The position numbers and the translations under genes are program-made. Shown in pieces: positions 13,862-55,323 of a stretch of 64,000 nucleotides of DNA. A model generated the notes under the pieces. It was given only the letters and a program-made list of their open reading frames with translations. It had not been told where the DNA came from and ran no database searches. Source of the stretch: an uncultured Candidatus Saccharibacteria bacterium (GTDB lineage: Bacteria > Patescibacteriota > Minisyncoccia > Minisyncoccales > CAYUYO01); the NCBI GenBank assembly GCA_964449385.1, contig CAYUYO010000002.1, positions 15,414 through 79,413 on the forward strand, in the 5' to 3' direction. How positions within the stretch are numbered: position 1 is the first letter of the stretch; each line of letters begins with the position of its first letter.

Positions 13862-15664
13862 TTATTCTACAGTTACTGATTTTGCTAAATTTCTTGGTTT
13901 ATCAATATCACGGTCAAGCGAAGCAGCTAAATAATAAGCAAAAAGATGTAAAGGAATAACAGATAAAATAGGCGTCAGCATTTCCAAGGTTTTGGGAATA
14001 TAAATTACATCATCAACCATCTTTTTGATTTCCTCGTTGCCTTCGGTAGCTATGGCAATAATTGGTCCTTTTCTAGTTTTTATTTCATCAATACTGGAAA
14101 TCATTTTTTCATAAACTGAATCTGAAGGACAAATAGCAATAGTAGGAAAATTTTCATCAATTAAGGCTATATGGCCATGTTTTAATTCCCCTCCTTCCAG
14201 TCCTTCGGCATGAAGATAAGAAATTTCTTTCAATTTTAAAGCTCCTTCTAAAGCAATAGGATAATTATACTTTCTGCCAATAAAGCAGAAATTCTTAAAA
14301 TCTTTATATTTTTTAGCTATTTTTTCAATTTCCGGAGCTAACTTTAAAACTTCTCTGGCTAAATTTGGAAGATTGGAAAGTTCAGAAACAATTCTCTTGC
14401 CCATTACTAAAGCCATTTCTCTTTGCCTCCCTAAATATAAAGTTACCATGGCTAAGATTGTCAATTGTCCCAAGAATGCTTTAGAAGAAGCAACCGCAAT
14501 TTCCGGTCCTGACCGTGTATAAATTCCGGCGTCAGTTTCTCTGGCCTGACTAGAACCAACAACATTAGTAATACCTATAGTCAGAATACCTTTCTTTTTC
14601 ATTTCTCTTAAGGCAGCTAATGTATCAGCCGTTTCTCCAGACTGAGAAACAAAAATGGTCGCAGTGTTTTTATTAATTACTGGCTTTCGATAACGAAATT
14701 CTGAGCTTATGTCGGCTTCGGTAGAAATACCGACATATTCTTCCAACATATATTTTCCAACTTTAGCAGCATAGCTAGCTGTTCCACAAGCTATTAAAAT
14801 TAATTTGTTAATTTTCCTTAATCTCTCCTGAATTTCATCTAATCCGCCCAATCTTACCGAACCCTCTTTAATCATTAATCTGCCTCTGATAGCATTTTCA
14901 ATAGCTTCTGGCTCTTCCATTATTTCTTTTAACATAAAATGGGCATAGCCTCCTTTTTCTGCCTCTTCTATTTTCCATTCAATGGTTTCTAATGGCTTTT
15001 CTTTCAAAATAAAAAAATCATCGGGTTTTAAAACAGCGATTTCGTTATCATCTAAATTTATAATTTGTCTAGTATGAGTAATAATAGCAGCCGGATCAGA
15101 AGCAACTAAAAATTCATCTTTATTTATTCCCAAAATTAAAGGTGAGGAAAAGCGAGCAGCAACAATTTTTTGTGGGTCTTTTTTTGAAATTACTGCTATA
15201 CCGTAAGTCCCCCTTACTTCTCTCAGAGCTTTTCTGACTGCTTCTTCTAAGTTATCTCGAAAATATTTTTCAATCAAATGACATAAAACCTCGCTGTCAG
15301 TTTCAGAAGTAAATTTATGGCCTTCTTTAATTAACTTATCTTTTAATTCCTGATAATTTTCAATAATGCCATTATGAACTAAAAAAATGTTTTTCTGGCA
15401 ATCAAAATGAGGATGGGAATTAGCTTCGGTAACTTCACCAGTAGTAGCCCACCTTGTATGAGCAATACCAATTTCTCCTGAAGGATTTGGGAAATTTTGT
15501 TCAAATTCAGAAATTTTTCCAACTTTTTTAAATAAAAACGGCTCATTTTTATTCAAAATAGAAAAACCGAAGCTGTCATAGCCCCGATACTCTAATCTTT
15601 TTAATCCTGAAAGTAAAACTGGAAAAGCTGGCTTTTTGCCGATATAACCTATAATTCCACACAT
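13862..15664 (-). CDS. glmS: glutamine--fructose-6-phosphate aminotransferase
   Basis: N-terminal nucleophile MCGIIGY, two SIS domains, C-terminal LAKSVTVE. Confidence 0.97.
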   Translation of the reverse strand: MCGIIGYIGKKPAFPVLLSGLKRLEYRGYDSFGFSILNKNEPFLFKKVGKISEFEQNFPNPSGEIGIAHTRWATTGEVTEANSHPHFDCQKNIFLVHNGIIENYQELKDKLIKEGHKFTSETDSEVLCHLIEKYFRDNLEEAVRKALREVRGTYGIAVISKKDPQKIVAARFSSPLILGINKDEFLVASDPAAIITHTRQIINLDDNEIAVLKPDDFFILKEKPLETIEWKIEEAEKGGYAHFMLKEIMEEPEAIENAIRGRLMIKEGSVRLGGLDEIQERLRKINKLILIACGTASYAAKVGKYMLEEYVGISTEADISSEFRYRKPVINKNTATIFVSQSGETADTLAALREMKKKGILTIGITNVVGSSQARETDAGIYTRSGPEIAVASSKAFLGQLTILAMVTLYLGRQREMALVMGKRIVSELSNLPNLAREVLKLAPEIEKIAKKYKDFKNFCFIGRKYNYPIALEGALKLKEISYLHAEGLEGGELKHGHIALIDENFPTIAICPSDSVYEKMISSIDEIKTRKGPIIAIATEGNEEIKKMVDDVIYIPKTLEMLTPILSVIPLHLFAYYLAASLDRDIDKPRNLAKSVTVE

Positions 15665-31914: not shown

Positions 31915-32373
31915 ATGAAAGAGATGAAGATTTTTGCTGAAAATAAAAAAGCTTATTTTAACTACGAAATTTTGGAAAGATTTGAAGCTGGAATTTCTTT
32001 GATTGGACAAGAAGTAAAATCAATAAAATTAGGAAGAGTAAACTTGTCCGGTTCTTATATAATTTTAAAAAACAACGAAGTTTTTTTAATCGGAGTTAAT
32101 ATTCCTCCATATCAGTCAAAAAATATTTCCTCAGACTATAATCCCGAACGCTCAAGAAAATTACTTCTGAAAAAGGCCGAAATCAAACATTTAATTGGTA
32201 AAGCTAAACAGAAAGGCTTGACTTTAGTGCCCTTAAAAGCTTATACTAAGAAAAGAAAAATTAAAATTGAATTTGGGATTGCTAAAGGAAAGAAAAAAAC
32301 AGATAAAAGAGAAGTAATCAAAAAACGAGAGTTTAAGAGAGAAAAAGAAAGAGAGTTAAGACTACGGGGGTGA
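31915..32373 (+). CDS. smpB: SsrA-binding protein
   Basis: KKAYFNYEI, GQEVKSIK, basic C-terminal tail. The stop TGA at 32371-32373 lies inside the tmRNA 5' acceptor strand. Confidence 0.95.
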   Translation: MKEMKIFAENKKAYFNYEILERFEAGISLIGQEVKSIKLGRVNLSGSYIILKNNEVFLIGVNIPPYQSKNISSDYNPERSRKLLLKKAEIKHLIGKAKQKGLTLVPLKAYTKKRKIKIEFGIAKGKKKTDKREVIKKREFKREKERELRLRG

Positions 32374-32730
32374 TATGAATCGACAGAAGTTTTTATTAAA
32401 ATAGGCAGATCGAGCATTAATAGAAACTCGTTAAACTTTTATTAAAAAAATAAGTGCTAACTTATTCGCAAGCAAACAGCTTGCTCCTGTTTACGCTTAA
32501 AACCGTAAACCATCTGCCCGTTAATTCTCGATAGGCGGACTCAGGTGTCATATTATCGAGATAGATAATTTCTTTTGATTTAGGAGAAAATATCAAAAAA
32601 TACTAGATCAGAATCGTAAATGTTTTTGCTTAATTTTTAATTTATGATTTCTAATTTAAATTAAGCTAAATCTGTAGAAATATTTTAATAAAGTTTCTGG
32701 ATTGGGGTCCAAATCCCCACACCTCCACCC
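32366..32730 (+). ncRNA. ssrA: tmRNA (SsrA)
   Basis: 5' GGGGGTGATATGAATCGAC resembles the canonical tmRNA 5' end. Acceptor GGGGGUG/CACCUCC has the G3:U wobble, discriminator A plus CC. T arm TGGGG-TCCAAAT-CCCCA. Tag frame GCT AAC ... GCT TAA at 32456-32500 is preceded by AATAAGT. Confidence 0.9.
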
Positions 32731-39142: not shown

Positions 39143-40150
39143 TTATCCTTCGTTATGACTTGAGTGATTAAATAAAGTATTTTTTAGTAGGTTTATTCCA
39201 AATTTAAGCAAAATTACTACTCCGGCTAAAGCCAAAATTAACTCGGCTCCACGAATAATCATAGTAAAGGCTGTGGCTGTAGAGGCTCCTAATCCTAAAG
39301 AATTAAAAGCAAAGGTTTGGATTACTTCATGGCTTCCTAGGGCAGCAGGAATGGGAATCATTGCCGCTAAATAAGTAAAACCAAGAATCGATAAAGCAGG
39401 CAAAGCGCTTATTTTTTCTCCTAAAAAAATAATTAAAAGTAAAACTCTAAAATACATTATTCCTGCCCTTAAAAAAGATATGCCAAAACTTTTCCATAAT
39501 GATTTTTTTCTAAGTTGAAAAAAATTAAAAATTTCCTTTTCGATTTCTAAAACACTGTTTTCCGGATTCATTTTTTTTAAATTAAAAATTTTAAAAAAAA
39601 TTTGAGCTAAACTCTCTTTTTTAAAAACCTTCAAATAAAAATAACTAATTCCTCCGGCAAAAAGTAGGAAAACTCCACCAAAGATTATTACTAATTTCAT
39701 TGGAGGAGATCCAATAGTAAAAAGAAAAAATAAAGTCCCAAAAAAAATAATCACCAGGTTGGTAGTCCATTCTAAAACCCTATCAATTATTACTGAAGCT
39801 ACTCCCTTAGACCAGGAAATTGAATTATTTCTTTTTAAAAGATAGCTTCTAAAAATTTCTCCACCCCAAAGCAAAATTGGAGCTAAAAACATTACTGAAA
39901 AACCGCCTAAATAAGACGGGAAAAGACCTTTAAGAGAAACTTGAGATCCTTCTTCTTTTAAGATTTCCTGCCACCTCCAATTGCTGATTAATATTATCAA
40001 TAAGGTTAAAAGAAAAATTATTACACCGAACCAGCCAGTAAAAACTAGAAAAGAGTCTTTAATTTCTTGCCAACCAACAACCTTGCCAATCCAAATTAAA
40101 AGACCTATTCCAATTAAAAGAGAAACTATAAAAAGCAAAATTTTTTTCAT
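39143..40150 (-). CDS. UPF0104/flippase-like (lysylphosphatidylglycerol synthase TM region-type) membrane protein
   Basis: About 8 helices, 335 aa, conserved-looking RGAELILA segment. Family call rests on overall pattern. Confidence 0.5.
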   Translation of the reverse strand: MKKILLFIVSLLIGIGLLIWIGKVVGWQEIKDSFLVFTGWFGVIIFLLTLLIILISNWRWQEILKEEGSQVSLKGLFPSYLGGFSVMFLAPILLWGGEIFRSYLLKRNNSISWSKGVASVIIDRVLEWTTNLVIIFFGTLFFLFTIGSPPMKLVIIFGGVFLLFAGGISYFYLKVFKKESLAQIFFKIFNLKKMNPENSVLEIEKEIFNFFQLRKKSLWKSFGISFLRAGIMYFRVLLLIIFLGEKISALPALSILGFTYLAAMIPIPAALGSHEVIQTFAFNSLGLGASTATAFTMIIRGAELILALAGVVILLKFGINLLKNTLFNHSSHNEG

Positions 40151-42335: not shown

Positions 42336-42812
42336 TCAGGAGACTAAATATCTTATTTTTTTAATTTTATAAGTAGTCTTGATAGGAGAAGAAACAAAAA
42401 CTTCATCTCCAACCTGATGCCCTAAAAGAGCACTACCTACTGGTGATTCATTACTAATTTTTCCAAGAGAAGGATTGGCCTCTAAAGAACCGACGATTTC
42501 AAATTCATCAGTTTGGCCATTTACTTTAACTATTATTTGAGCACCCAAATTAATAGTATTTTGTCTTCCTTTAGGTGGAATTTTAATTATCTCAAGATTT
42601 TTCAAAACGTTTTCTAATTCACTCATTCTTGCTTCCAAAAAACTCAAATCCTCCTGGAAAGAAAGATATTCTGGGTTTATATCTTCTGATTGCCAAATCT
42701 TAGGAACCTCTCCTGCAACTTTAGCAAGTTTAAGTTTTTTGAAATCTTGGTATTCTTTTTTTATCTTTTCTACTCCTTGTTGAGTTAAATAAAATTTCTT
42801 TTCTCCTATCAT
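42336..42812 (-). CDS. greA: transcription elongation factor GreA
   Basis: N-terminal coiled coil (LTQQGVEKIKKEYQDFK), C-terminal ISNESPVGSALLGHQVGDEV motif; 158 aa. Confidence 0.93.
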   Translation of the reverse strand: MIGEKKFYLTQQGVEKIKKEYQDFKKLKLAKVAGEVPKIWQSEDINPEYLSFQEDLSFLEARMSELENVLKNLEIIKIPPKGRQNTINLGAQIIVKVNGQTDEFEIVGSLEANPSLGKISNESPVGSALLGHQVGDEVFVSSPIKTTYKIKKIRYLVS

Positions 42813-42823
42813 ATTTTTTCAAA

Positions 42824-42888
42824 AATCCCCTTTGGTGAGGGGATTAGTTATTAAAATGAAATTTATTTATTAATCTTAATCCCCTCAC
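42824..42888 (-). promoter_or_regulatory. greA leader with two mutually exclusive hairpins
   Basis: Minus-strand RNA. Segment 1 is GUGAGGGGAUUA (42888-42877) and segment 2 is UAAUCCCCUCAC (42846-42835); they give 12 perfect bp across a 30-nt spacer. Part of segment 2 (AAUCCCCU) also pairs with AGGGGAUU (42831-42824), followed by UUUG and then the greA AUG 11 nt later. Confidence 0.55.
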
Positions 42889-42989
42889 TCTTTAAATTTT
42901 CCGTAAGCTAAAATTGAAATGGTGTGAATCCATTTACAATCGGTAAAATTTTTAGGAGTATTAATTTTTTGAATAAATTTCTTTATCAT
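42885..42989 (-). CDS. candidate 34-codon leader ORF upstream of greA
   Basis: ATG at 42989, MIKKFIQKINTPKNFTDCKWIHTISILAYGKFKE, stop TGA at 42887-42885 inside hairpin segment 1. Only a weak purine-rich stretch sits upstream. Below the ORF-track size cutoff. Confidence 0.3.
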   Translation of the reverse strand: MIKKFIQKINTPKNFTDCKWIHTISILAYGKFKE

Positions 42990-45749: not shown

Positions 45750-46712
45750 TCCGCAAAGTTTAGCAATAAATAAGATGTAAAGTAAAAGATACATTGCCCC
45801 TTCCCAGATATGAATTTTTCGGGAAATCCCGGAAATTATAAAAAGTAAAGTAGCAACAATTAAAAATGGAAGACCAATTGAGAAAGTAAGTTCATCAACT
45901 GTTAAAGGACGAATCAGAGCCGGAATTCCTACTACCAATAAAATATTAAAAACATTTGAACCGAAAATATTTCCTAAAGCAATTTCATATTTTTTCTTCA
46001 AAGAAGCTCTAATTGAAACTACTAGTTCTGGTAAAGAAGTACCTATAGCCAAAACAGTAATAGCTATTAAAGAACTGGAAATCTTTAATAGCTCAGAAAT
46101 CTTTATCATTGCTTCAATTGTATAATTAGCTCCAACGGTTAATCCTACTATTCCTAAAACTAAAAATAAAAAAGTTTTAGAATTAATCCCTGGAGAAACT
46201 TTTCGTCTTTCCACTCTTGAAGGTAAGATTTCAATTGCTTCTGAAATTTCTTTTTCGGGCTTTCTTTTTTGAAAAATTGTATACAAAATATAAATTAAAA
46301 AACCTAAAATCAATAAAATTCCTTCCCCTAAAACTATTTTTTTATCCCAGACTACAAAAATAAAGAGAAAGGTAGTAATACCCAAGAGAGGAGCATCTAA
46401 ATCAATCAAGTTTCTTTTAACAATTAGAGTTTTAGCCAATATTGCAGAAATCCCAACTATTAAAAGAATATTTCCTAAATTAGACCCTACGACATTAGCA
46501 GCAACTATTTCGGTTGTTCCTTTAAGAGTGGCAATTATTGATGTAGCTAATTCAGGAAAAGAAGTACCAATAGCAACAATAGTTACTCCGATTATAAAGG
46601 GAGAAATTTTTAGGGCTAATCCAATTTTTTCTGAGCTTTCTACAAACCAATCAGCCGATTTTACCAAGACGGCTAAACTTAAAATAAAAGCTAAAATCCA
46701 GAGAATTAACAT
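45741..46712 (-). CDS. Ca2+/Na+ antiporter (CaCA/YrbG family)
   Basis: Two alpha-repeat motifs GTSFPELATS and GTSLPELVVS; 323 aa polytopic. Confidence 0.88.
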   Translation of the reverse strand: MLILWILAFILSLAVLVKSADWFVESSEKIGLALKISPFIIGVTIVAIGTSFPELATSIIATLKGTTEIVAANVVGSNLGNILLIVGISAILAKTLIVKRNLIDLDAPLLGITTFLFIFVVWDKKIVLGEGILLILGFLIYILYTIFQKRKPEKEISEAIEILPSRVERRKVSPGINSKTFLFLVLGIVGLTVGANYTIEAMIKISELLKISSSLIAITVLAIGTSLPELVVSIRASLKKKYEIALGNIFGSNVFNILLVVGIPALIRPLTVDELTFSIGLPFLIVATLLFIISGISRKIHIWEGAMYLLLYILFIAKLCGLF

Positions 46713-47044
46713 GTTAAATGAAATAAACCAATTACTTTTTTATTCTTCACTTCAGCATTAAAAACCTTAATTGCCTCAGTTGTTTCATCAACAATCAGCC
46801 CAATTCCTTTAGAAAGAATCTCTTTCTTCGCATTATCAGTTATTTTAGCTAATCCTGGCTCGCCCGTTCCGACAACAATTAACTCTGGGTTTTGTTCAAT
46901 TGCTCTTTTAAGGCTTTCGATATCAATAATATGAGATTCTTTTCTCCACCACTCTAAAACTTTCCCATCCCAACGGACTTCAACATCATATTCATAAGTT
47001 TTCCCTAAAATAATAATTAACCCAAATTTATATTCTTCTATCAT
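46706..47044 (-). CDS. Mth938-like (DUF498) domain protein
   Basis: 112 aa; DVEVRWDGKV.., LIVVGTGEPG pattern of the Mth938 fold family. Confidence 0.6.
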   Translation of the reverse strand: MIEEYKFGLIIILGKTYEYDVEVRWDGKVLEWWRKESHIIDIESLKRAIEQNPELIVVGTGEPGLAKITDNAKKEILSKGIGLIVDETTEAIKVFNAEVKNKKVIGLFHLTC

Positions 47045-47067
47045 AATAGTTTATTTTATCATAATAA

Positions 47068-48315
47068 TTAAAAAATAGTTGATTGGCGAGATAAATTTTT
47101 TTGCTCTTTCTTATAAAAAATCCTAACTTTACCATAAACTCCGTCGTAACCCGGCTCAACATAAACTTTTCCTTCTCTGACCCTAATTATACCTTCAGTA
47201 ATTTCTGGTGAAGTAGCTACTTTTAAGTCTTGAGATGAGATATCAAGTAGAACTTTAAATTCATTTCCAAATTTTTCAATTAGATTTTTGTATTCTTTAT
47301 CAACTCGCTTTGTCATTGATCCTACTCCTAAAACATCAGCAATAATTTCAACTAAAGGAACCAAACTTTTGAAGGGAATAAGATTTTCTGATTTAAATCC
47401 TTCTTTTTTATCAGCTAAAAAATCCACCCTATTTAGAACTCCAATTGTTAAAGGTTTCCCGCAACTTGGACAAATATTATTGTATTTTTTAGATTCTTTT
47501 GGTGATAAACTAATTTTGCAATTTCTATGGCCATCATAATAATATTTCCCTTCTTCGGGATAAAATTCAACAGTATATAAAAACTTTTTAGGATTTTTTT
47601 CTTTAATAGCTTCAATTATCGCTTGATAACTTACTTCAGTATTAAAAACATTTGCTTCACGGCCAATATGGGCAGGGCTATGAGCATCGCTGTTTGAAAT
47701 CAAAGTTACTTTTCGACCATCGGGAATTCGCCAAATCATTGCAGGGTTAGCTGATAGACCTGTTTCTAAAGCAAAAATATATTTTGAATAATCCTCAAAA
47801 CATTCTTCTATGGAATCAAAGCCGGATTTCGAACCAAATATACCAAACCAGGGAGTAAAACAATGTGCAGGAATAATTAAACAATCTTTTGAGATATTTA
47901 AAACAATCTTTACTAATTCTTTCGAATCTAATCCTAAAATCGGTCTTCCGTCGGATTTCAAACTACCAATACGACTTAAATGAGCATTAATTTTCTCTAC
48001 TATTTTAAAAGAAGGAGCAAAAATTAAATTGTGAATTTTTCTAACTCTTCCAGCTTTAGAATAAATATTAGATATTTCAACAGTTAAAATAAATCTTGTT
48101 TCTGAGTTAGAGTTTTTTAATTTAAAAAGTCCCTCTTCGGCCGGTTTTAATTTTTCTTTTAGTCCTTTTAACCATTCTGGATAGGTGAAATCCCCTGTTC
48201 CTAAAATTTTAATTCCCTTAATTTTTGCCCATTTATCTAAATTTTCTAAATCCATTTGAGGAGAAGTTGCTCTGGAATATTTACTATGAAGATGAAAATC
48301 AGCAATAAATGTCAT
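47068..48315 (-). CDS. endonuclease Q-like PHP-domain nuclease
   Basis: N-terminal ADFHLHSKYSRATS PHP motif, CPSCGKPLTIGVLNRV zinc finger, about 415 aa as in EndoQ. Confidence 0.7.
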   Translation of the reverse strand: MTFIADFHLHSKYSRATSPQMDLENLDKWAKIKGIKILGTGDFTYPEWLKGLKEKLKPAEEGLFKLKNSNSETRFILTVEISNIYSKAGRVRKIHNLIFAPSFKIVEKINAHLSRIGSLKSDGRPILGLDSKELVKIVLNISKDCLIIPAHCFTPWFGIFGSKSGFDSIEECFEDYSKYIFALETGLSANPAMIWRIPDGRKVTLISNSDAHSPAHIGREANVFNTEVSYQAIIEAIKEKNPKKFLYTVEFYPEEGKYYYDGHRNCKISLSPKESKKYNNICPSCGKPLTIGVLNRVDFLADKKEGFKSENLIPFKSLVPLVEIIADVLGVGSMTKRVDKEYKNLIEKFGNEFKVLLDISSQDLKVATSPEITEGIIRVREGKVYVEPGYDGVYGKVRIFYKKEQKNLSRQSTIF

Positions 48316-48319
48316 ATGT

Positions 48320-49459
48320 TTAAAAGTTAAAAATTTGAAAAATTGCTCCTAAAACAAAAATAGCTATTAAAAAGTATAATAAAATAGCCGGAGTTTTTAA
48401 ACAATATTCTGGTTTTCTATTTCCTAAAGACTTTGCCTTTTTAAAAATTAAAACAATGGCTATTCCTTCAATTGCTCCAATAAATGTACCAACTAATCCA
48501 ATGGTTTCAATAAAATTTCTGAACCCAATTAAAAATAAAATTAAAGGTAATCCACAGGCAATAAGAGCAGAAAACTGTCTTGGAATTTTATAGTCATAAA
48601 ATAAAGTATTTTTAAAATAATTGCCTAAAACTAAAAAAGAAGTAGATATAGCTAACACCCCAAACAAAGCACCTAAAATAACAATATTTTGATTCAAATA
48701 AGGTATAAGTCCCTGAAAAGCTTCAGGGGTAGTATTATTACCCGAAACACCAATAATAGATATCGTAAAAAGAAAATATAGAACAATAACAATTGAAATA
48801 ACCAAAATTATTATTTTTTTAAGACCTTTCTTCTCTTCTGGTTTTTTAAGAATTTCAGCAATTATTGGTATGGCCGGATAACCAATTAAAGAAAACAAAA
48901 TTATTCCATAAGGTAAAAAAATGCCTTTTAAATTTATTATGCTGAAATTTTGAAGATTAAATTTCGGCAAAACTAAGAAGATTAATAAAAATATTACGGA
49001 AAATAGGGCAATATTCATTAAAAGCTCTGCTCGAGCAATTAATTTTATTCCTCGAAAAATAAAAAAAGCCAAAATAAACCAAAAAATCAGGCTAAAATAA
49101 AAAGAAGGTAAATTAAGGAATGAAGAAAAGATAAGCTTCAAAAAATCTCCACCAATAATTATATAAGCCAAAAGAGTACCAGCTAATCCTACAATAGTTG
49201 AAATAGTAATTAAGATTCTGCCTTTGTTCCCTAAATATTTTTTGGCATAACCGGGTAATCTATGTTTTTCTCTTGTCCTTAAAATTACTTCTCCAAAAAG
49301 CAAATGGATTAATAAAATTGCTCCGCCCAATATTAAAAAGTAAAAAAAACCGGGGATAAGCCCGCTTCCTTTAATTGCATAAGGAATGCCAAAAATTCCT
49401 GCCCCAATTATTGTTCCTAATAAAATAGAACTTACTAAAAGAAGTTTCTTAATCCTCAT
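48320..49459 (-). CDS. amino acid permease (aromatic amino acid/Trp-Tyr permease-like)
   Basis: About 11 helices; N-terminal GTIIGAGIFGIPYA motif. Confidence 0.65.
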   Translation of the reverse strand: MRIKKLLLVSSILLGTIIGAGIFGIPYAIKGSGLIPGFFYFLILGGAILLIHLLFGEVILRTREKHRLPGYAKKYLGNKGRILITISTIVGLAGTLLAYIIIGGDFLKLIFSSFLNLPSFYFSLIFWFILAFFIFRGIKLIARAELLMNIALFSVIFLLIFLVLPKFNLQNFSIINLKGIFLPYGIILFSLIGYPAIPIIAEILKKPEEKKGLKKIIILVISIVIVLYFLFTISIIGVSGNNTTPEAFQGLIPYLNQNIVILGALFGVLAISTSFLVLGNYFKNTLFYDYKIPRQFSALIACGLPLILFLIGFRNFIETIGLVGTFIGAIEGIAIVLIFKKAKSLGNRKPEYCLKTPAILLYFLIAIFVLGAIFQIFNF

Positions 49460-49515
49460 TAAAATATTTTAATGCGAAGTATTGAACACTTTCGCTTTTG
49501 TAATAAGCTCGACTT

Positions 49516-49791
49516 CTAAAGCTTATATACGTTATAGCCTTCCCGAACTCTTTGATCAACTTTTGTTCCAATCGAATCACCTTTTTTGGCTGTCTTTATT
49601 TTTTGATGATCAACCTCCATTGATTCAATAACCTGTTCAAAATCAGTTTCTCCACCAATAATTCTGATATTATCACCTACTTTTAAGGGAGCCGAAAGGT
49701 CAATGACGGCTACTCCAATATTGTTAAAATAATGAGAAATTTTACCTATTAATTTTCCTTCTTCAGAATTTTTAGGCTTTTTGTCTACCAT
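49516..49791 (-). CDS. small EF-Tu domain-2-like beta-barrel protein (translation elongation factor-like)
   Basis: 91 aa; VGDNIRIIG...FEQVIESMEVDHQKI..AKKGDSIG pattern resembling the translation-factor beta-barrel. Confidence 0.5.
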   Translation of the reverse strand: MVDKKPKNSEEGKLIGKISHYFNNIGVAVIDLSAPLKVGDNIRIIGGETDFEQVIESMEVDHQKIKTAKKGDSIGTKVDQRVREGYNVYKL

Positions 49792-49811
49792 TTTTTTAAT
49801 GCTTTTTATTT

Positions 49812-50411
49812 TTATTTCGACCTTTTACGATTTTCTTTTTTTTCTTTCTTAATAAGAGCAATTAATTTTTTAACTATTTTTTTAGGATCTTTCTCATAAA
49901 TAATCTTTTTTACTCCTCGGTGAGGACCAGTAGCAATTGCCCTTATTTTATCAGCTGTTCCTCCAGATCCTTCTAAAACACCAATTGGTTTCTGGTCTTC
50001 AAAAGCAATGGTAAATTCGTTTAATGTTCCCATTCTGCCACAAATAATAATTACTCCGTCGGCAGCATTGGTCATTAACAAATTTCTTCCCGAATAATCA
50101 AAACCAGTATAAATAATTATATCAAAAGCATCAACCGGCAACTTATAACTTTTTAAATGGGCAATTTCTGAACCAGCTGGAGAAAATCCAATAGAAAAAC
50201 CGCCGACTTTTTTACATCCTTGAGCAGAAAAATAAGGAACACCTGTAGTAGCTCCGGTAACTAAGATACATTTTTGTTTAGCAATTTCTTTACCAATTTC
50301 TTCAGATAATTTTTCAATTCCCTGGCAACAATGGCCAATTTGAGCTGCTCCGGAAACAGCAATTTTATAACGTATTTTATATGCCATAAATATATTATAA
50401 CATAAATGCAA
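49812..50411 (-). CDS. LOG/TIGR00725-like Rossmann protein (lysine-decarboxylase-like family)
   Basis: KIAVSGAA.., VTGATTG, ICGRMGTLNEF (GGxGTxxE-like). The second Met at 50387 (MAYKIRYKIAVSG) is an equally plausible start. Confidence 0.65.
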   Translation of the reverse strand: MHLCYNIFMAYKIRYKIAVSGAAQIGHCCQGIEKLSEEIGKEIAKQKCILVTGATTGVPYFSAQGCKKVGGFSIGFSPAGSEIAHLKSYKLPVDAFDIIIYTGFDYSGRNLLMTNAADGVIIICGRMGTLNEFTIAFEDQKPIGVLEGSGGTADKIRAIATGPHRGVKKIIYEKDPKKIVKKLIALIKKEKKENRKRSK

Positions 50412-50423
50412 CTTTAAGAAACT

Positions 50424-50452
50424 AAAAAAGGAAATAATTGTTTCCTTTTTTT
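50424..50452 (-). terminator. intrinsic terminator (hairpin symmetric, works on both strands)
   Basis: Minus strand: A7-GGAAA-CAAUUA-UUUCC-U6. Follows the structured RNA after 2 nt and precedes the LOG-like start by 12 nt (or 36 nt). Confidence 0.7.
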
Positions 50453-50454
50453 AG

Positions 50455-50580
50455 TGAGGGGGAACAGTTCTTTCTGTTATTGGCTTGAGTCAAAACCTAT
50501 ATGGACATTTAATAGGGACGTCCTTTAGCCTCCTTCATAAAAAACCGTTTGTCCTACAAGAAAAATCTTGTACCCCCTCA
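50455..50580 (-). ncRNA. unclassified structured RNA (riboswitch-like leader or small RNA)
   Basis: GC-rich closing helix UGAGGGGG (50580-50573)/CCCCCUCA (50462-50455) in an AT-rich genome. Internal hairpins are UACAAGA-UUUU-UCUUGUA (50572-50555) and AACAG-AAAGAA-CUGUU (50478-50463). Flanked by its own promoter and terminator. Confidence 0.55.
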
Positions 50581-50586
50581 AACATA

Positions 50587-50615
50587 AGTCTATCTGAACT
50601 AAAAATTAGTGTCAA
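50587..50615 (-). promoter_or_regulatory. candidate promoter of the structured RNA
   Basis: Minus strand: TTGACA (50615-50610), 17-nt spacer, TAGACT (50592-50587). The predicted start about 7 nt downstream coincides with the first base of the closing helix. Confidence 0.5.
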
Positions 50616-50621
50616 GATTTG

Positions 50622-50693
50622 TGCCCTTAGTAGGAATCGAACCTACATTCCAAGCTCCGGAGGCCTGTACTCTATCCATTAAGTTATAAGGGC
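50622..50693 (-). tRNA. tRNA-Arg (anticodon CCG), CCA not encoded
   Basis: Reverse complement gives acceptor GCCCTTA/TAAGGGC plus A. Anticodon stem CAGGC/GCTTG with loop CTCCGGA. T arm GTAGG-TTCGATT-CCTAC. Starts 1 nt after the upstream gene stop. Confidence 0.88.
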
Positions 50694-50694
50694 A

Positions 50695-51435
50695 TTATTT
50701 TTCCGCGACTAAATAAATATTAGATTCTTTTGTTTTTGAACTCTTTAAAATTCCCTTTTTTTTAATTTTAAAATCTACCGACTGAACTATTTTTTTAAAA
50801 CCTTTTATAGTGAAATAGTGAATATATCTTTGTATAATATTGCTCCATGAAACAAAAAAATCCCCAAAATCCAGTTTTGACATGCCAAAAATTTTTAAAA
50901 TTTGATCTTTTAGAAATCCCTTTACTCTCTTTTGTTGACCAATTAAAATCATTGTTATTGGATTTAAGTTCCAAACAGTCAAAATAAAAATACCCTTAGG
51001 TTTCAAAACTCTTTTTGCTTCCTTTAAAAATTTGAGACGGAATTCTTTAGAAGGAATATGATGAAAAACCGCAAAGCTAAAAATTTTATCAAAATAATTC
51101 GAAGAAAATGGTAGACTTAAAGCATCGGCTACTTGGAAGTCTCTATTTGGATATTTTTCTTTCGCTATCTTAATCATTTTTTTAGAAATATCAACTCCGA
51201 AATATTCAACCTGCATATTTTTAAAAACTTCAAAAAATCTTCCATTTCCACAACCCAAATCTAAAATTCTATCTCCTGGACCAATATATTTTAAAAGTAG
51301 CTCTTTTCTATCTTCAGGTACATATTCCCTCGTTCTTGAAAAGTCCTCGGCAGTTAAGTTATAATCTGCTGTAGTCTTTTTAAAAAGATATTGAGCGTAT
51401 TTTTTATCCATCAATGAATATTGAAGAATTAACAA
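50695..51435 (-). CDS. class I SAM-dependent methyltransferase, Trm9/ALKBH8-MT-like
   Basis: DFSRTREYVPE..ILDLGCGNGRF, ADALSLPF, FAVFHHIPSKEFR, LTVWNL, FFVSW...RYIHYFT parallel the Trm9 blocks FSQTRYKPWP..DVGCGNGKY, ADGLNLP, AVVHH..ERR, WALEQ, VPW..RYYH. The start is probably the internal Met at 51411 (MDKKYAQ). Confidence 0.65.
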   Translation of the reverse strand: MLILQYSLMDKKYAQYLFKKTTADYNLTAEDFSRTREYVPEDRKELLLKYIGPGDRILDLGCGNGRFFEVFKNMQVEYFGVDISKKMIKIAKEKYPNRDFQVADALSLPFSSNYFDKIFSFAVFHHIPSKEFRLKFLKEAKRVLKPKGIFILTVWNLNPITMILIGQQKRVKGFLKDQILKIFGMSKLDFGDFFVSWSNIIQRYIHYFTIKGFKKIVQSVDFKIKKKGILKSSKTKESNIYLVAEK

Positions 51436-52970
51436 TCCAAGAATTAATTAAAAATAGAGCAAAAACTCCAGCTGATTTAGCTATGATTAAAAGAAAAATA
51501 GCTAAAAAATATAAAACTTCCTGCTCTTCAAATATTATCCTCTTAAAAGTTTATCATAAGATGGTCGGAAAGAAAAGATTAAAATTGTCAAAAATATTAG
51601 AAAAACTACTTCAAACCAGACCAATTCGCTCTCTTTCAGGAATCGTTAATGTTTCTGTTTTAACTTCACCCTATCCTTGTCCTGGTAAATGTATTTATTG
51701 TCCTTTTCAAAAAGGAATCCCCAAGAGTTATCTTCCCGGAGAACCAGCTGTAGAAAGAGCTAAAAGATTGGATTACAATCCTTATCAGCAAGTTAAAAAA
51801 AGAATTGAAATGCTAAAAATGGAGGGTCATCCTATTGATAAGATAGATATAAGAATTATTGGCGGAACCTGGAGTTATTATCCCAAAAAATATCAAACTT
51901 GGTTTATTACACACTGTTTTACAGCATGCAACGCAAAATATACAAGAAAAATTAAATCTTTAGAAAAAGAGCAAAAATTAAACGAAAAAGCGAAATGTCG
52001 AGTAGTTGGACTGTCAATAGAAACCAGACCGGATTTTATTACTAAAAAAGAGATTAAACATCTGAGAAAATTAGGAGTTACTCGGGTAGAAATAGGAGTT
52101 CAAAATATTTATGACGATGTTTTAGAGTTAAATAAAAGAGGCCATAACATAAAAACTACAATTAAAGCAACAAAACTTCTCAAAGATGCTGGTTTTAAAG
52201 TCTGCTATCAAATGATGCTAAATTTACCCGGTTCTAATTTAAAAAGAGATGAAAAAATGTTTGAAGAACTTTTTTCCAATTCTGATTTTCAACCCGACTT
52301 GCTAAAAATTTACCCTTGTGCCTTATTAAAACAAGCTCCTCTTTATAGATGGTGGAAAAAAGGAAAATACAAGCCCTATACTACTTCTCAACTAATAAAT
52401 CTTGTTAAATCAATTAAAAAGAAAATACCTTATTATGTCAGAATTCAAAGAATAACTAGGGATATTCCTTCTCAAGAAATCGTTGCCGGTCCGGCTAAAA
52501 TTTCTAATTTGCGCCAAATTATTGCTAAAGATTCTGAAAATGAAGATTGGGAATGCCATTGCATAAGATGTCGAGAAGTTAAAGAAAATTACAATTCAAA
52601 AGAAAAAATAAAATTATTTCGTCAAAATTATAAAGCTTCTGACGGAAAAGAAATATTTTTAAGTTTTGAAAGTAAAAATCAGGAAAAGCTTTATAGTTTA
52701 CTTCGTCTACGTATTTCTTCAGAAAATAAAGCTATTATAAGAGAAATTCATACCTATGGTAGAGCAATACCAATTTCTGAAAAAAAATCGGCCCCTCAGC
52801 ACAAAGGATTAGGTAAAAGGTTACTTAAAGAAGCAGAAAAAATAGCCAAAAAGGAATTTGGCTTAAATAAAATCAAGGTAATCTCGGGAGTTGGTGTTAG
52901 AAATTATTTTGGCAAATTAGGTTATAAATTAGAAAATACTTATATGGTTAAACATTTCGAGAAACTCTGA
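51414..52970 (+). CDS. elp3: Elp3-type radical SAM/GNAT tRNA U34 carboxymethyl-modification enzyme
   Basis: Radical SAM cluster motif PYPCPGKCIYCP, TIM-barrel middle region, C-terminal GNAT acetyl-CoA loop QHKGLGKRLLKEAEKIA; 518 aa. Confidence 0.88.
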   Translation: MNIEELTIQELIKNRAKTPADLAMIKRKIAKKYKTSCSSNIILLKVYHKMVGKKRLKLSKILEKLLQTRPIRSLSGIVNVSVLTSPYPCPGKCIYCPFQKGIPKSYLPGEPAVERAKRLDYNPYQQVKKRIEMLKMEGHPIDKIDIRIIGGTWSYYPKKYQTWFITHCFTACNAKYTRKIKSLEKEQKLNEKAKCRVVGLSIETRPDFITKKEIKHLRKLGVTRVEIGVQNIYDDVLELNKRGHNIKTTIKATKLLKDAGFKVCYQMMLNLPGSNLKRDEKMFEELFSNSDFQPDLLKIYPCALLKQAPLYRWWKKGKYKPYTTSQLINLVKSIKKKIPYYVRIQRITRDIPSQEIVAGPAKISNLRQIIAKDSENEDWECHCIRCREVKENYNSKEKIKLFRQNYKASDGKEIFLSFESKNQEKLYSLLRLRISSENKAIIREIHTYGRAIPISEKKSAPQHKGLGKRLLKEAEKIAKKEFGLNKIKVISGVGVRNYFGKLGYKLENTYMVKHFEKL

Positions 52971-53895
52971 TTAACCCTGAACAAGGAATAATTTCTATTC
53001 CTTTTTTTTCAAGTTCATCTAAAAACAAATTTACCCCTAAAGAATCGGAAGACATATGTCCAGCAATAACAATATTAAGATTTGAAGCTTCGGCTTCTTT
53101 TTTATGTTCTTCTGACATATGCATACCTACCACGGTGCCAATCCCGGATTGAGCCATTTTTTCATAAATTTTCGGAGAACCTTCTGTCCCGCCAGTAATC
53201 TCAGTTAAAGCAATTTTTCCGCAACGATTTTCTTCAGTTCCAACGAATATTTTAGGACCAACTCCAATTTCCATTGCTTTTTTATATTCCGGAACTGTTT
53301 TAAATACGTTTATTAAATCACTAATTCTTTCCGGATTTTCTTTTTCAATTAAATCCTTTAAAAATTTAGCTGCTAAATTATCGCAAGGAGTATGAGAATT
53401 CATTAAATTAATTTTAAGAAGCCTAGCAGCATCTACCGTTCTTTGATGATTAATAGGATTAACTCCTCTAGCTACTTCTCCAATTCTTTCTTTCATTAAT
53501 CCTTCGGCAATATTTATGGGAACTCCGTAAAAATTTAAAACATCACACTGTAAATCCATTACATCTGCTAAATGTGCTAATCCTTTTCCAATAGGATGAT
53601 GAGCAATAACTAAATCTATTCCATCAATTTCTTTAGATATAAGGAGTTCTGCCGATTCAATATCAATACCGACTAAAACTTTTTTTATTTCTTTATCTTC
53701 GGCAATATGATAAATCCTTGAGTCCAAATAAGGGTTTGTTAAAATTTCTTTATCTGCTTCTTTTTTTTCTTCTTCGGTTAATTTTTCGTATTTTTCTTTT
53801 TTTCTTGTTAAAAATTTTTTAACTCCTTCTTCTCCACGAAAATCAGCCTCAATACCTTTATTTATTGCTAGATTGTAAATTTCTTTTATCTTCAT
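52948..53895 (-). CDS. NIF3 (YbgI/GTP cyclohydrolase 1 type 2 homolog) family protein
   Basis: DLVIAHHP dinuclear-metal motif; AGHMSSD second-half motif. Confidence 0.75.
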   Translation of the reverse strand: MKIKEIYNLAINKGIEADFRGEEGVKKFLTRKKEKYEKLTEEEKKEADKEILTNPYLDSRIYHIAEDKEIKKVLVGIDIESAELLISKEIDGIDLVIAHHPIGKGLAHLADVMDLQCDVLNFYGVPINIAEGLMKERIGEVARGVNPINHQRTVDAARLLKINLMNSHTPCDNLAAKFLKDLIEKENPERISDLINVFKTVPEYKKAMEIGVGPKIFVGTEENRCGKIALTEITGGTEGSPKIYEKMAQSGIGTVVGMHMSEEHKKEAEASNLNIVIAGHMSSDSLGVNLFLDELEKKGIEIIPCSGLIRVSRNV

Positions 53896-54120: not shown

Positions 54121-55323
54121 TTATTGTTTTTTGTCCAGAGAAACAAACTCTTCTTTCACTATTTTCCTATCATCCCATGGTATTTTTTTACCACCAGCTA
54201 TACAAATCCAAGGTTCACATCCTTTACCAGTAATTATTACTACATCGTCTTTCTTAGCCAAACTTAATGCATAATGAATTGCTTCTCTTCTGTCTAATAT
54301 TTTTTTGGCTTTCCTGTTTGTTCCCTCAGCTACTTGGTTAATAATTTCCATTGGGTCTTCATCATAGGGATCTTCGTTACTAATAATAATTTCACTACAA
54401 TAATCAGCCGCTATTTTACCCAACTCCGGTCTTTTCCATTTATCTCTGCCTCCTCCGCAAGAGCCTAAAACTGCAATCATTTTCCCACTTTGAGGTTTTA
54501 AAGTTTGATAAACTTTTTTCAAAGCATTCGGAGTAAAAGCATAATCAACAAATACTTTGAAAGGACTAGAAATAACCTCTTCCATACGACCAGGAATTCC
54601 TTTAACTTTTTCTAAAGCTGTTTCGCAGGTTTCCAAACTAATTCCTTGAGATAATCCTATACAAATTGACGCTAAGGCATTATAAATATTAAAACCGCCT
54701 ATTAAATAAAGTTTAAATCGAGTATTTTTAGTATTAATATCTCCTTTATTTAGTCCATAGGTATATTTTTTATCAGCTGGAAACTGTAAAAAATACTCAG
54801 CATTTTCGTCGTCTATGTTAATAATGTGGATTCCCTTCGTGGCTTGAAACAGTTTCCCTTTAGCTTTTTTATAATTTTCAAATCCTTTATGAGCTTCAAT
54901 ATGTTCCGGTGTTAAGTTAGTAAAGACGGCTACGTCAAAATCGATGAATGCCTGTCGATGTTGTAAAATACCCTCAGAAGTTACTTCCAAAATAACATAT
55001 TGACATCCGCTATTTACTGCTTGTCTTAAAAACTTTTGGAGTTTAAAACGACCTGGCATGGTCATTTTTAAAAAGTTTTCTCTTTCTTTTTCTCTAATTT
55101 TAAATTTAATTGAAGATAAAGAAGCAATTTTATAACCTGCTTCTTCTAAAATCTCAGCTGTTAAACTAATTACTGTAGTTTTCCCATTAGTACCAGTTAT
55201 TCCAATTACTTTTATTTTTTTTGAGGGAAAGCCATAAAAAACAGCTCCCAAAAAAGCAAGTAAAAAATGATACCAACTAAGTAAAAAAACAGGAATAAAT
55301 TTTTTAATAATTTCCTTTCCCAT
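54121..55323 (-). CDS. Mur ligase family protein, MurE-like but lacking the N-terminal domain
   Basis: GITGTNGKTT P-loop at aa ~43, EVTSEGILQHR, TNLTPEHIEAH, GRMEEV, VDYAFTPNAL, GGGRDKWKRP, NEDPYDEDP. N-terminus is a hydrophobic helix FIPVFLLSWYHFLLAFLGAVFYGF. Confidence 0.75.
   Translation of the reverse strand: MGKEIIKKFIPVFLLSWYHFLLAFLGAVFYGFPSKKIKVIGITGTNGKTTVISLTAEILEEAGYKIASLSSIKFKIREKERENFLKMTMPGRFKLQKFLRQAVNSGCQYVILEVTSEGILQHRQAFIDFDVAVFTNLTPEHIEAHKGFENYKKAKGKLFQATKGIHIINIDDENAEYFLQFPADKKYTYGLNKGDINTKNTRFKLYLIGGFNIYNALASICIGLSQGISLETCETALEKVKGIPGRMEEVISSPFKVFVDYAFTPNALKKVYQTLKPQSGKMIAVLGSCGGGRDKWKRPELGKIAADYCSEIIISNEDPYDEDPMEIINQVAEGTNRKAKKILDRREAIHYALSLAKKDDVVIITGKGCEPWICIAGGKKIPWDDRKIVKEEFVSLDKKQ

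Follow-up and report, generated by a model that had tools for sequence, protein, structure and literature searches.

A small structured RNA gene of Nealsonbacteria-like Patescibacteria with a covarying self-complementary segment

Natural RNA homodimers are rare, and most of them have been found by structure determination rather than by prediction from sequence. Ribozymes that depend on dimerization exist, for example the VS ribozyme. SAM-I is a riboswitch aptamer built from a junction and a pseudoknot, and the 6S and CsrB types are small RNAs (sRNAs) that sequester proteins. Domain 3 of HYER1, listed at 637 nt, and P10 of ARRPOF form natural RNA homodimers through complementary or palindromic base pairing, and OLE, ROOL and GOLLD self-associate (PMC12990946). 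The element analyzed here lies between a tRNA-Arg(CCG) gene and a LOG-like gene on the minus strand of a 64,000-nucleotide stretch of contig CAYUYO010000002.1 (assembly GCA_964449385.1, an uncultured Candidatus Saccharibacteria bacterium; positions 15,414 to 79,413), hereafter the window; the genome is Parcubacteria/Nealsonbacteria-like. Judged from comparative sequence analysis, it is a free-standing structured non-coding RNA (ncRNA) gene with a predicted product of about 157 nt, consisting of a 126-nt core and a terminator hairpin. Its most unusual feature, absent from an earlier reading of the window made from the letters alone (the sequence-only reading), is a covarying self-complementary segment. 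The element is probably a stand-alone structured sRNA with its own promoter and terminator, homodimeric and acting in trans, with no cis regulation of the LOG-like gene.

Conservation and covarying structure

With the LOG-like protein as query, 80 genome loci were retrieved, all from metagenome-assembled genomes of Patescibacteria (L001-L080); the closest carry the labels Nealsonbacteria, Tagabacteria or 'Patescibacteria group'. A homologous element was present in the same place in 11 of the 20 closest loci and absent from the other nine, and no match to either covariance model was found in the more distant loci L021-L080. Metagenome contigs were scanned with a pattern describing only the RNA, which returned 112 stretches, about nine in ten of which were confirmed by the covariance models. 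The pattern matches in L089, L106, L134, L139, L141 and L157 failed the model and were discarded as chance matches, mostly in GC-rich sequence. Across the sources searched, 96 full-length covariance-model matches were obtained at 46-122 bits, 83 of them distinct, and the window core scored 111.6 bits (E = 3e-22) against the family model. One complete genome with the RNA is CP179888.1. A phage origin was rejected after a pattern scan of viral contigs gave seven matches, none of which was confirmed by the model. A repeat or mobile element was likewise rejected, as the covariance models detect the element once in the window and nowhere else in the loci. By these matches, the range of the RNA in the sources searched is one subclade of Parcubacteria, the Nealsonbacteria-like Patescibacteria.

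The homologue and covariation check proposed in the sequence-only reading could be carried out on the 96 loci, and the outcome was positive. Pairs were counted over the 83 distinct sequences and 36 pairs, with 500 column shuffles and with partners slid by 1-3 columns as controls. Paired cells amounted to 95.1%, compared with 84.5% in the column shuffles and 43-53% with slid partners. Changes on both sides were seen in 26 of the 36 pairs, and none of the 500 shuffles matched any observed measure. By these counts, the RNA is under structural selection over its whole length.

In the predicted fold, P1, P2 and a long arm meet at a three-way junction, the arm being made up of P3, a GGA/AAG internal loop and P4 (coordinates are given in Table 1). 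The long arm ends in a predicted multiloop containing an A-rich linker, the 8-nt self-complementary segment and the hairpin P5. Both the closing helix described in the sequence-only reading (UGAGGGGG, 50580-50573, with CCCCCUCA, 50462-50455) and its first hairpin (UACAAGA-UUUU-UCUUGUA, 50572-50555) were recovered, as P1 and P2. P1 is changed in compensatory fashion in locus L007 (GAGAAGG/CCUUCUU), and the apical pair of P2 takes the forms AU, GC, UA, UG and CG. P4 is replaced elsewhere in the family by GGU/ACU or GAU/AUC, and variants of the P5 stem include CUGGU/ACCAG, CCGAU/AUCGG, CUAGC/GCUAG and UUAAUUUC/GAAAUUAA. A second hairpin of that reading, AACAG-AAAGAA-CUGUU (50478-50463), was not upheld: it is paired in 44% family-wide, which is the shuffle level, and its CUGUU pairs instead with AACGG in P3. 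In the internal loop the GGA strand (model positions G56, G57 and A58) is near-invariant, and the 3' side reads AAU in the window and AAG in most members. A kink-turn reading of this GGA/AAG loop was rejected by inspection, as its strands are not in the order of the consensus, a 3-nt bulge followed by G·A and A·G. The string AAGGAGG resembles a Shine-Dalgarno sequence, but its bases are taken up by the GGA of the internal loop and by P4.

The GGACA of the junction strand is invariant in 82 of the 83 sequences; the exception, L007, has GAACA together with UGUUC, which amounts to one compensatory change. A pseudoknot between GGACA and the UGUCC of the P5 loop is likely. Of the multi-way junction or pseudoknot suggested from the sequence alone, the former is borne out by covariation as the three-way junction, and the latter corresponds to this probable tertiary pairing. 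The pairings that had been described as competing within the core proved in part to be separate real features (GGC/GCC is P4, CCUAU/AUAGG is P5 and GGACA/UGUCC is the likely pseudoknot), whereas a third GGAC/GUCC pairing turned out to be the self-complementary sequence GGACGUCC.

This 8-mer, situated between P4 and P5, was scored as four 'pairs' of the segment with itself. It was 97.6% self-complementary among the 83 sequences, all four pairs covaried, and it occupied the same alignment position in 81 of the 83. Around 20 different palindromes are found there, including GCAGCUGC, GGAUAUCC, GGAGCUCC, GCAAUUGC, GAAGCUUC, GUAGCUAC, GGGUACCC and GUAUAUAC. The central adjacent bases are GC in 51 sequences, UA in 14, CG in eight, AU in six and UG in one; since adjacent bases are unable to pair in cis, covariation of this central pair points to pairing between two molecules. 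About 20 cells of the family hold G·U, and the variants UGAGCUCG, GUAGCUGC, GCGCGUGC, GUACGUGC and UGUAUGUA are non-palindromic as DNA; because such variants are tolerated, selection appears to act on the RNA. Weak, A/U-rich versions of the palindrome are longer, at 12-14 nt. Duplex energies mostly fall between -10 and -15 kcal/mol, and the segment was used in 43 of 67 dimers predicted with RNAcofold, the window's included. The window 8-mer repeats the pseudoknot words GGAC and GUCC; most members have a palindrome that bears no relation to the strands of the pseudoknot. The statistic 'longest palindrome anywhere' was dropped in favor of position-specific counts, as shuffles of the same composition often contain G·U-tolerant palindromes of at least 8 nt. 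The covarying palindrome appears to be explicable only by RNA-RNA pairing between two copies.

In the proposed working model, two copies of the RNA would be joined through the palindrome by an 8-bp helix, and the working form, inferred from covariation, would be a two-fold symmetric homodimer. In the dimer, the palindrome helix could be stacked between the two P5 hairpins as one central rod, and each P5 loop could reach the junction of the other protomer to form the GGACA-UGUCC pairing in trans. Such trans pairing would perhaps be easier than pairing in cis, because P3 and P4 together span about 20 bp and P5 only 5-6 bp. The action of the RNA in trans might then be that of a rigid, symmetric scaffold or decoy, with a dimeric protein as the most likely partner and possibly a small ligand, this being the weakest step of the model. 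Antisense action would not be expected, because almost every conserved base is engaged in structure. Somewhat less than even weight is given to a stronger proposal, in which an obligate two-fold symmetric homodimer would be the functional unit of a new small ncRNA class, having the 8-bp helix on its symmetry axis, possibly two domain-swapped GGACA-UGUCC pairings, and a symmetric site for binding, or a pocket for catalysis or a ligand, beyond the reach of a monomer.

Transcription unit and neighboring genes

The promoter described from the sequence alone (TTGACA at 50615-50610, a 17-nt spacer and TAGACT at 50592-50587) was found as stated. Transcription is predicted to proceed from this near-consensus sigma-70 promoter of the RNA's own and to start at the first P1 bases, at about 50581-50579, a site placed from the -10; UGAGGGGG begins 7 nt past this hexamer. 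Among the 64 distinct homologues whose upstream sequence is long enough, 63 have a promoter of the same pattern (TTGAC[AT], 16-18 nt, TAnnnT), and the -10 of the homologues ends 4-7 nt ahead of covariance-model position 1. An intrinsic terminator had also been predicted after the core, and a hairpin with a U-run was indeed located there (50454-50422). Such a terminator, scored as a hairpin with an energy of -5 kcal/mol or lower and then a run of four or more T, was counted in at least 56 of the 65 homologues; the median is -10.6 kcal/mol, and the sequence is freely variable. The terminator is predicted to be constitutive in design. These promoter and terminator counts agree with the discrete terminated sRNA of about 157 nt that had been offered as an alternative in the sequence-only reading. 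A 166-nt transcript folds at -51.2 kcal/mol (z = -4.8, equaled by none of 200 shuffles), and the G+C fraction is 0.40 in the core compared with about 0.25-0.30 in the flanks. In most homologous loci a tRNA-Arg gene lies upstream of the RNA, and in the window no terminator was found in the sequence between tRNA-Arg(CCG) and the sRNA. A small-ORF (open reading frame) reading of the RNA was rejected in favor of a non-coding one, as an AUG is present in the P5 loop of some members only and opens a 3-codon ORF in the window. A 65-aa TTG-initiated ORF at 50485-50682 (+), antisense to the sRNA and tRNA-Arg, is almost certainly spurious.

Table 1. Predicted features of the sRNA locus in window coordinates; pairing percentages are family-wide
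Feature	Sequence	Position	Strand	Remarks
tRNA-Arg(CCG)		50621..50693	(-)	directly upstream of sRNA, same strand
-35 hexamer	TTGACA	50610..50615	(-)	sRNA promoter; begins 6 nt past tRNA-Arg 3' end
-10 hexamer	TAGACT	50587..50592	(-)	sRNA promoter; 17-nt spacer from -35
Structured sRNA core, 126 nt		50455..50580	(-)	P1 5' strand through P1 3' strand
P1	GAGGGGG with CCCCCUC	50573..50579 with 50456..50462	(-)	99.5% paired
P2 hairpin	UACAAGA-UUUU-UCUUGUA	50555..50572	(-)	99.7% paired
Pseudoknot (likely)	GGACA junction strand with P5-loop UGUCC	50550..50554 with 50503..50507	(-)	99.8% complementary
P3	5' strand AACGGUUUUUUAUGAA	50534..50549 with 50463..50478	(-)	15 pairs, 14 covarying, 90% paired
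Internal loop	GGA opposite AAU	50531..50533; AAU within 50479..50484	(-)	near-invariant
P4	GGC with GCC	50528..50530 with 50482..50484	(-)	3 bp, all covarying
Self-complementary 8-mer	GGACGUCC	50516..50523	(-)	between P4 and P5; proposed intermolecular helix
P5 hairpin	CCUAU...AUAGG	50496..50516	(-)	stem sequence highly variable, UGUCC always in loop
Intrinsic terminator	CUAAAAAAAGGAAAC-AAUUA-UUUCCUUUUUUAG + U-run	50422..50454	(-)	transcript ~157-160 nt
Extended -10 promoter of LOG-like gene	TGTTATAAT	50394..50402	(-)	between sRNA terminator and ATG 50387; ends 6 nt ahead of ATG
LOG-like gene		49812-50387	(-)	SLOG cluster4 / TIGR00725-like; PF18306, E = 1.9e-34

The LOG-like protein scores under the TIGR00725 cut-off (82 vs 106.9 bits) and falls clearly inside Pfam SLOG cluster4. 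Its closest solved relatives are a Thermotoga hypothetical protein (1rcu, E = 2e-10) and, also near, the Chlamydomonas molybdenum-cofactor carrier protein (2iz5, E = 2e-7). The gene is followed by those for a 91-aa protein with a predicted beta-barrel fold and an amino-acid permease. The three downstream genes named in the sequence-only reading are present; the EF-like assignment of the small protein corresponds to a weak match to EF-Tu domain 2 that lies below threshold. Regarding the two start codons proposed for the LOG-like gene, ATG 50387 is the conserved start and position 50411 is TTG, not ATG. The extended -10 ahead of this start is found in 54 of 111 LOG loci, with a modal spacing of 6 nt, and a -10 ending 3-10 nt ahead of the ATG is found in 78 of the 111; both sets include loci with and without the RNA. 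Because the -10 is so near the ATG, the LOG mRNA is predicted to be leaderless and to arise from its own promoter. A Shine-Dalgarno sequence (GGAG, GAGG or AGGA at -18 to -3) precedes two of 50 long ORFs in the window, and leaderless or near-leaderless mRNAs may be common in this genome. A strict extended -10 was seen within 22 nt of the start in three of the 50, and TAnAAT-like -10 sequences shortly ahead of the ATG were noted by eye for several genes, for example 54121-55323 (-) and 39143-40150 (-).

The gene order in the window from 46706 to 53895 is an Elp3-like radical-SAM/GNAT gene (on the opposite strand), a methyltransferase, tRNA-Arg(CCG), the LOG-like gene, the beta-barrel gene, the permease and a PHP-domain protein. 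Most of this order is kept in closer relatives, far beyond the range of the RNA, and the triplet of LOG, beta-barrel and permease genes is retained down to 57% LOG identity in many Parcubacteria lineages. The RNA precedes LOG, or the next gene of the cluster, in essentially every locus with enough sequence. In the close relatives L004, L008 and L012, tRNA-Arg is followed by LOG and the RNA is absent. In the metagenome loci L120, L123 and L125 the RNA is kept and the LOG-like gene has been lost, such that the RNA is followed by the 91-aa beta-barrel gene and, in L123, also by the permease. Because the order extends to relatives without the RNA, the adjacency of RNA and LOG is attributed to inherited synteny and has no independent weight as a sign of regulation. 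A functional link drawn from this adjacency was rejected on that ground and because loci that have lost LOG still keep the RNA.

Other elements were observed near the RNA in its homologues. DnaA-box-like repeats (TGTGGATAA, with at most one mismatch) are located just upstream of the sRNA -35, about 130 to 40 nt ahead of the RNA 5' end, usually as a sense-strand pair with an 11-bp separation (for example in L111, L124, L128, L002 and L136). At least one copy is present in 35 of 76 distinct loci and at least two in 17 of the 76, at a density roughly 80 times the background level in the 6 kb around them; the window copy has none. Some family members may thus have an sRNA promoter under DnaA control. 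In many relatives, a recurrent hairpin of the form CCCCGTTAGAGAAAT...CTAACGGGG either provides the terminator of the sRNA or has been inserted after the sRNA, ahead of LOG. This hairpin was found in 29 of 199 loci (for example L005:2881-2891, L009:2901-2960, L087:4520-4530, L090:2764-2827 and L115:4009-4068), not in the window, and also near LOG in the unrelated loci L030, L034 and L067. It looks like a repeated palindromic element of the REP (repetitive extragenic palindrome) or MITE (miniature inverted-repeat transposable element) kind. In the window itself, a long inverted repeat, GGTGAGGGGATTA...TAATCCCCTCAC, occupies an intergenic position at 42836-42891, upstream of the minus-strand ORF 42336-42812. 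The sequence-only reading had reported the closing-helix core a second time at this 'greA leader'. The GAGGGG/CCCCTC hairpin does exist there and is all that the repeat has in common with the sRNA P1; by the covariance model, it is not a family member, and the window contains no second one.

Weighing the alternatives

At gathering thresholds, only tRNA and transfer-messenger RNA (tmRNA) passed in a search of the window with Rfam 15. In a permissive search of 371 nt (E up to 10), the best matches to the element reached 10-20 bits against thresholds of 40-127, and permissive scans of 15 other members (E up to 1-10) gave nothing that matches it. The statement in the sequence-only reading that the RNA corresponds to no known family therefore holds for the window copy and these 15 members. 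Full-text literature searches (on the sequence; on SLOG cluster4/TIGR00725; and on ncRNAs and riboswitches of the Candidate Phyla Radiation and Parcubacteria) returned nothing relevant and no description of the RNA, and no paper describing lineage-specific ncRNAs of Patescibacteria was found in the literature searched. By its conservation, the RNA class is real, and it is without an Rfam 15 family or a paper in that literature. The tmRNA of the window (32366-32730 (+), 118.5 bits) is canonical and encodes the tag peptide ASKQLAPVYA. In L186, the distance between the sRNA and a homologous tmRNA is about 5 kb.

The main explanation advanced in the sequence-only reading is a transcription-terminating riboswitch, in which the ligand state of the fold would set the terminator and hence transcription of the LOG-like, beta-barrel and permease genes. 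The order of promoter, aptamer-sized fold with pseudoknot and junction, terminator and gene does hold, LOG or the next cluster gene follows in essentially every locus with enough sequence, and in a genome without Shine-Dalgarno sequences a read-through transcript could in principle be translated. However, no expression platform is apparent: in 61 of 65 full transcripts the minimum-energy fold contains both P1 and the terminator, the terminator arms vary freely, and no anti-terminator segment was seen in the conserved core of the examples inspected. The conserved extended -10 of LOG is situated past the terminator and ahead of the ATG, also where the RNA is absent, and L004, L008 and L012 pass from tRNA-Arg to LOG without it. 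The adjacency is accounted for by Parcubacteria-wide synteny, and an intermolecular palindrome would be unexpected in a co-transcriptional switch. On two points that define a riboswitch, location in a leader and an expression platform, the RNA thus appears to fail; this explanation is not supported and is considered very unlikely. The stand-alone promoter and terminator, the typical sRNA size and several short invariant stretches would also suit a trans-acting antisense sRNA, in which a single-stranded seed (GGACA, UGUCC or AAGGAGG) pairs with mRNAs and the rest is scaffold. Nearly the full length is nevertheless held in covarying helices, the invariant stretches are either engaged with one another (GGACA/UGUCC) or part of the structured internal loop and P4, and the palindrome plays no part in target pairing. 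Complementarity to the LOG 5' region or to tRNA-Arg was not seen by inspection in an unsystematic search. Antisense action is regarded as unlikely.

A divergent housekeeping RNA missed by existing models (signal recognition particle (SRP) 4.5S, 6S, 5S rRNA or a minimal RNase P) was considered in view of the single copy in the window, the strong promoter, the size of about 130 nt with a closing helix, and a superficial resemblance of GAAGGAAG...AGCAGC in some members to SRP helix 8; the window itself also contains no SRP, 6S or RNase P match. Such an RNA seems scarcely credible given that RF00169, RF00013, RF00001 and RF00010 were unmatched in the permissive searches of the window (E up to 10, 371 nt) and of 15 other members, and that a topology of junction, pseudoknot and multiloop is unlike the rod of SRP or 6S or the Y-shape of 5S. 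Moreover, 'AGCAGC' falls within the variable palindrome, close relatives lack the RNA at the same locus, and tmRNA is detected normally in this lineage. A small self-cleaving or otherwise catalytic RNA working as a dimer, in the manner of the VS ribozyme, would share the compact and highly conserved fold, the pseudoknot, the invariant unpaired nucleotides and the small size; it is highly improbable, as no Rfam ribozyme family matches, the gene is a lone single copy with its own promoter and terminator and lacks an obvious substrate, and no repeat or mobile-element context was seen. Finally, the RNA could be monomeric and the palindrome a protein-binding site in the DNA or a chance feature. Many variants are 6-bp palindromes of the restriction type (CAGCTG, GACGTC, GAGCTC, GATATC), and shuffled sequences of like composition often contain, at some position, a self-complementary stretch of at least 8 nt if G·U is allowed. 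Some 20 sequences are, however, too many for one DNA-binding protein, the G·U variants are not DNA palindromes, and the segment holds its position in 81 of 83 sequences at 97.6% pairing, compared with 43-53% in the slid controls for the whole structure. This possibility is put at an extremely low probability.

The preferred reading, a homodimeric sRNA that acts in trans and leaves the LOG-like gene alone, has points against it as well. Kinship among the sequences inflates the shuffle statistics, yet the slid-partner control, which keeps relatedness, also fails to reproduce the observed pairing. The case for the pseudoknot consists of near-invariant strands and the lone compensatory change in L007, that for dimerization of covariation and energy models, and that for the trans pseudoknot of helix-length arithmetic, with sequence unable to separate cis from trans. 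The 5' and 3' ends of the sRNA and its expression are predictions. The role as scaffold or decoy is a guess by exclusion with a hypothetical partner. Lastly, the RNA is always found in a single syntenic slot beside the LOG-like gene, and a functional tie to the LOG gene cluster is possible.

Relation to known RNA systems

With genomes of about 0.6 Mb, Patescibacteria have little DNA to spare, and a conserved, strongly promoted and intricately folded RNA is probably important in them. For RNA-RNA dimerization, covariation of the adjacent central bases of a palindrome is an evolutionary signature of unusual clarity. If the model is correct, this RNA would be among the very few with quaternary structure readable from covariation and one of the first classes of structured RNA confined to Patescibacteria. 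At about 260-320 nt, a dimer would be tractable for cryo-electron microscopy and biochemistry, and the palindrome-breaking change from GGACGUCC to GGACCUCC would be expected to leave the RNA monomeric. The locus also offers a caution, in that a layout of promoter, fold, terminator and gene is insufficient for a riboswitch call in genomes with leaderless mRNAs.

The SAM-I aptamer is similar in shape to this RNA with regard to size, a junction closed by P1, pairing between a distal loop and a junction strand, an internal loop in the bending arm and a terminator directly after the fold. It differs from the RNA described here, which has no apparent anti-terminator, no observed diversity of gene context, a downstream gene with its own predicted promoter, a proposed intermolecular helix and no Rfam riboswitch match. 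The likeness to 6S and CsrB lies in the inferred function of an independent structured RNA that probably binds a partner and does not act as antisense; the rod and bubble of 6S, the repeated GGA hairpins of CsrB and any Rfam match are absent. OLE, raiA, ROOL and GOLLD are likewise stand-alone, complex-folded and lineage-restricted orphan ncRNAs, with functions at best partly known. They are non-homologous to this RNA, which was recognized by covariation, is much smaller, belongs to another phylum and has one short palindrome rather than kissing loops. ARRPOF (RF02933) and HYER1, a ribozyme derived from group IIC introns, come closest to the proposed way of working but are much larger and occur in plasmid or intron contexts, whereas the RNA described here has a core of about 126 nt and a chromosomal sRNA gene. 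There is no sequence or model similarity to either; ARRPOF reached 10 bits against a threshold of 127 bits, on a different stretch. As in both of these RNAs, a self-complementary segment would give rise to a symmetric dimer made of RNA only, which in the present case is indicated by covariation.

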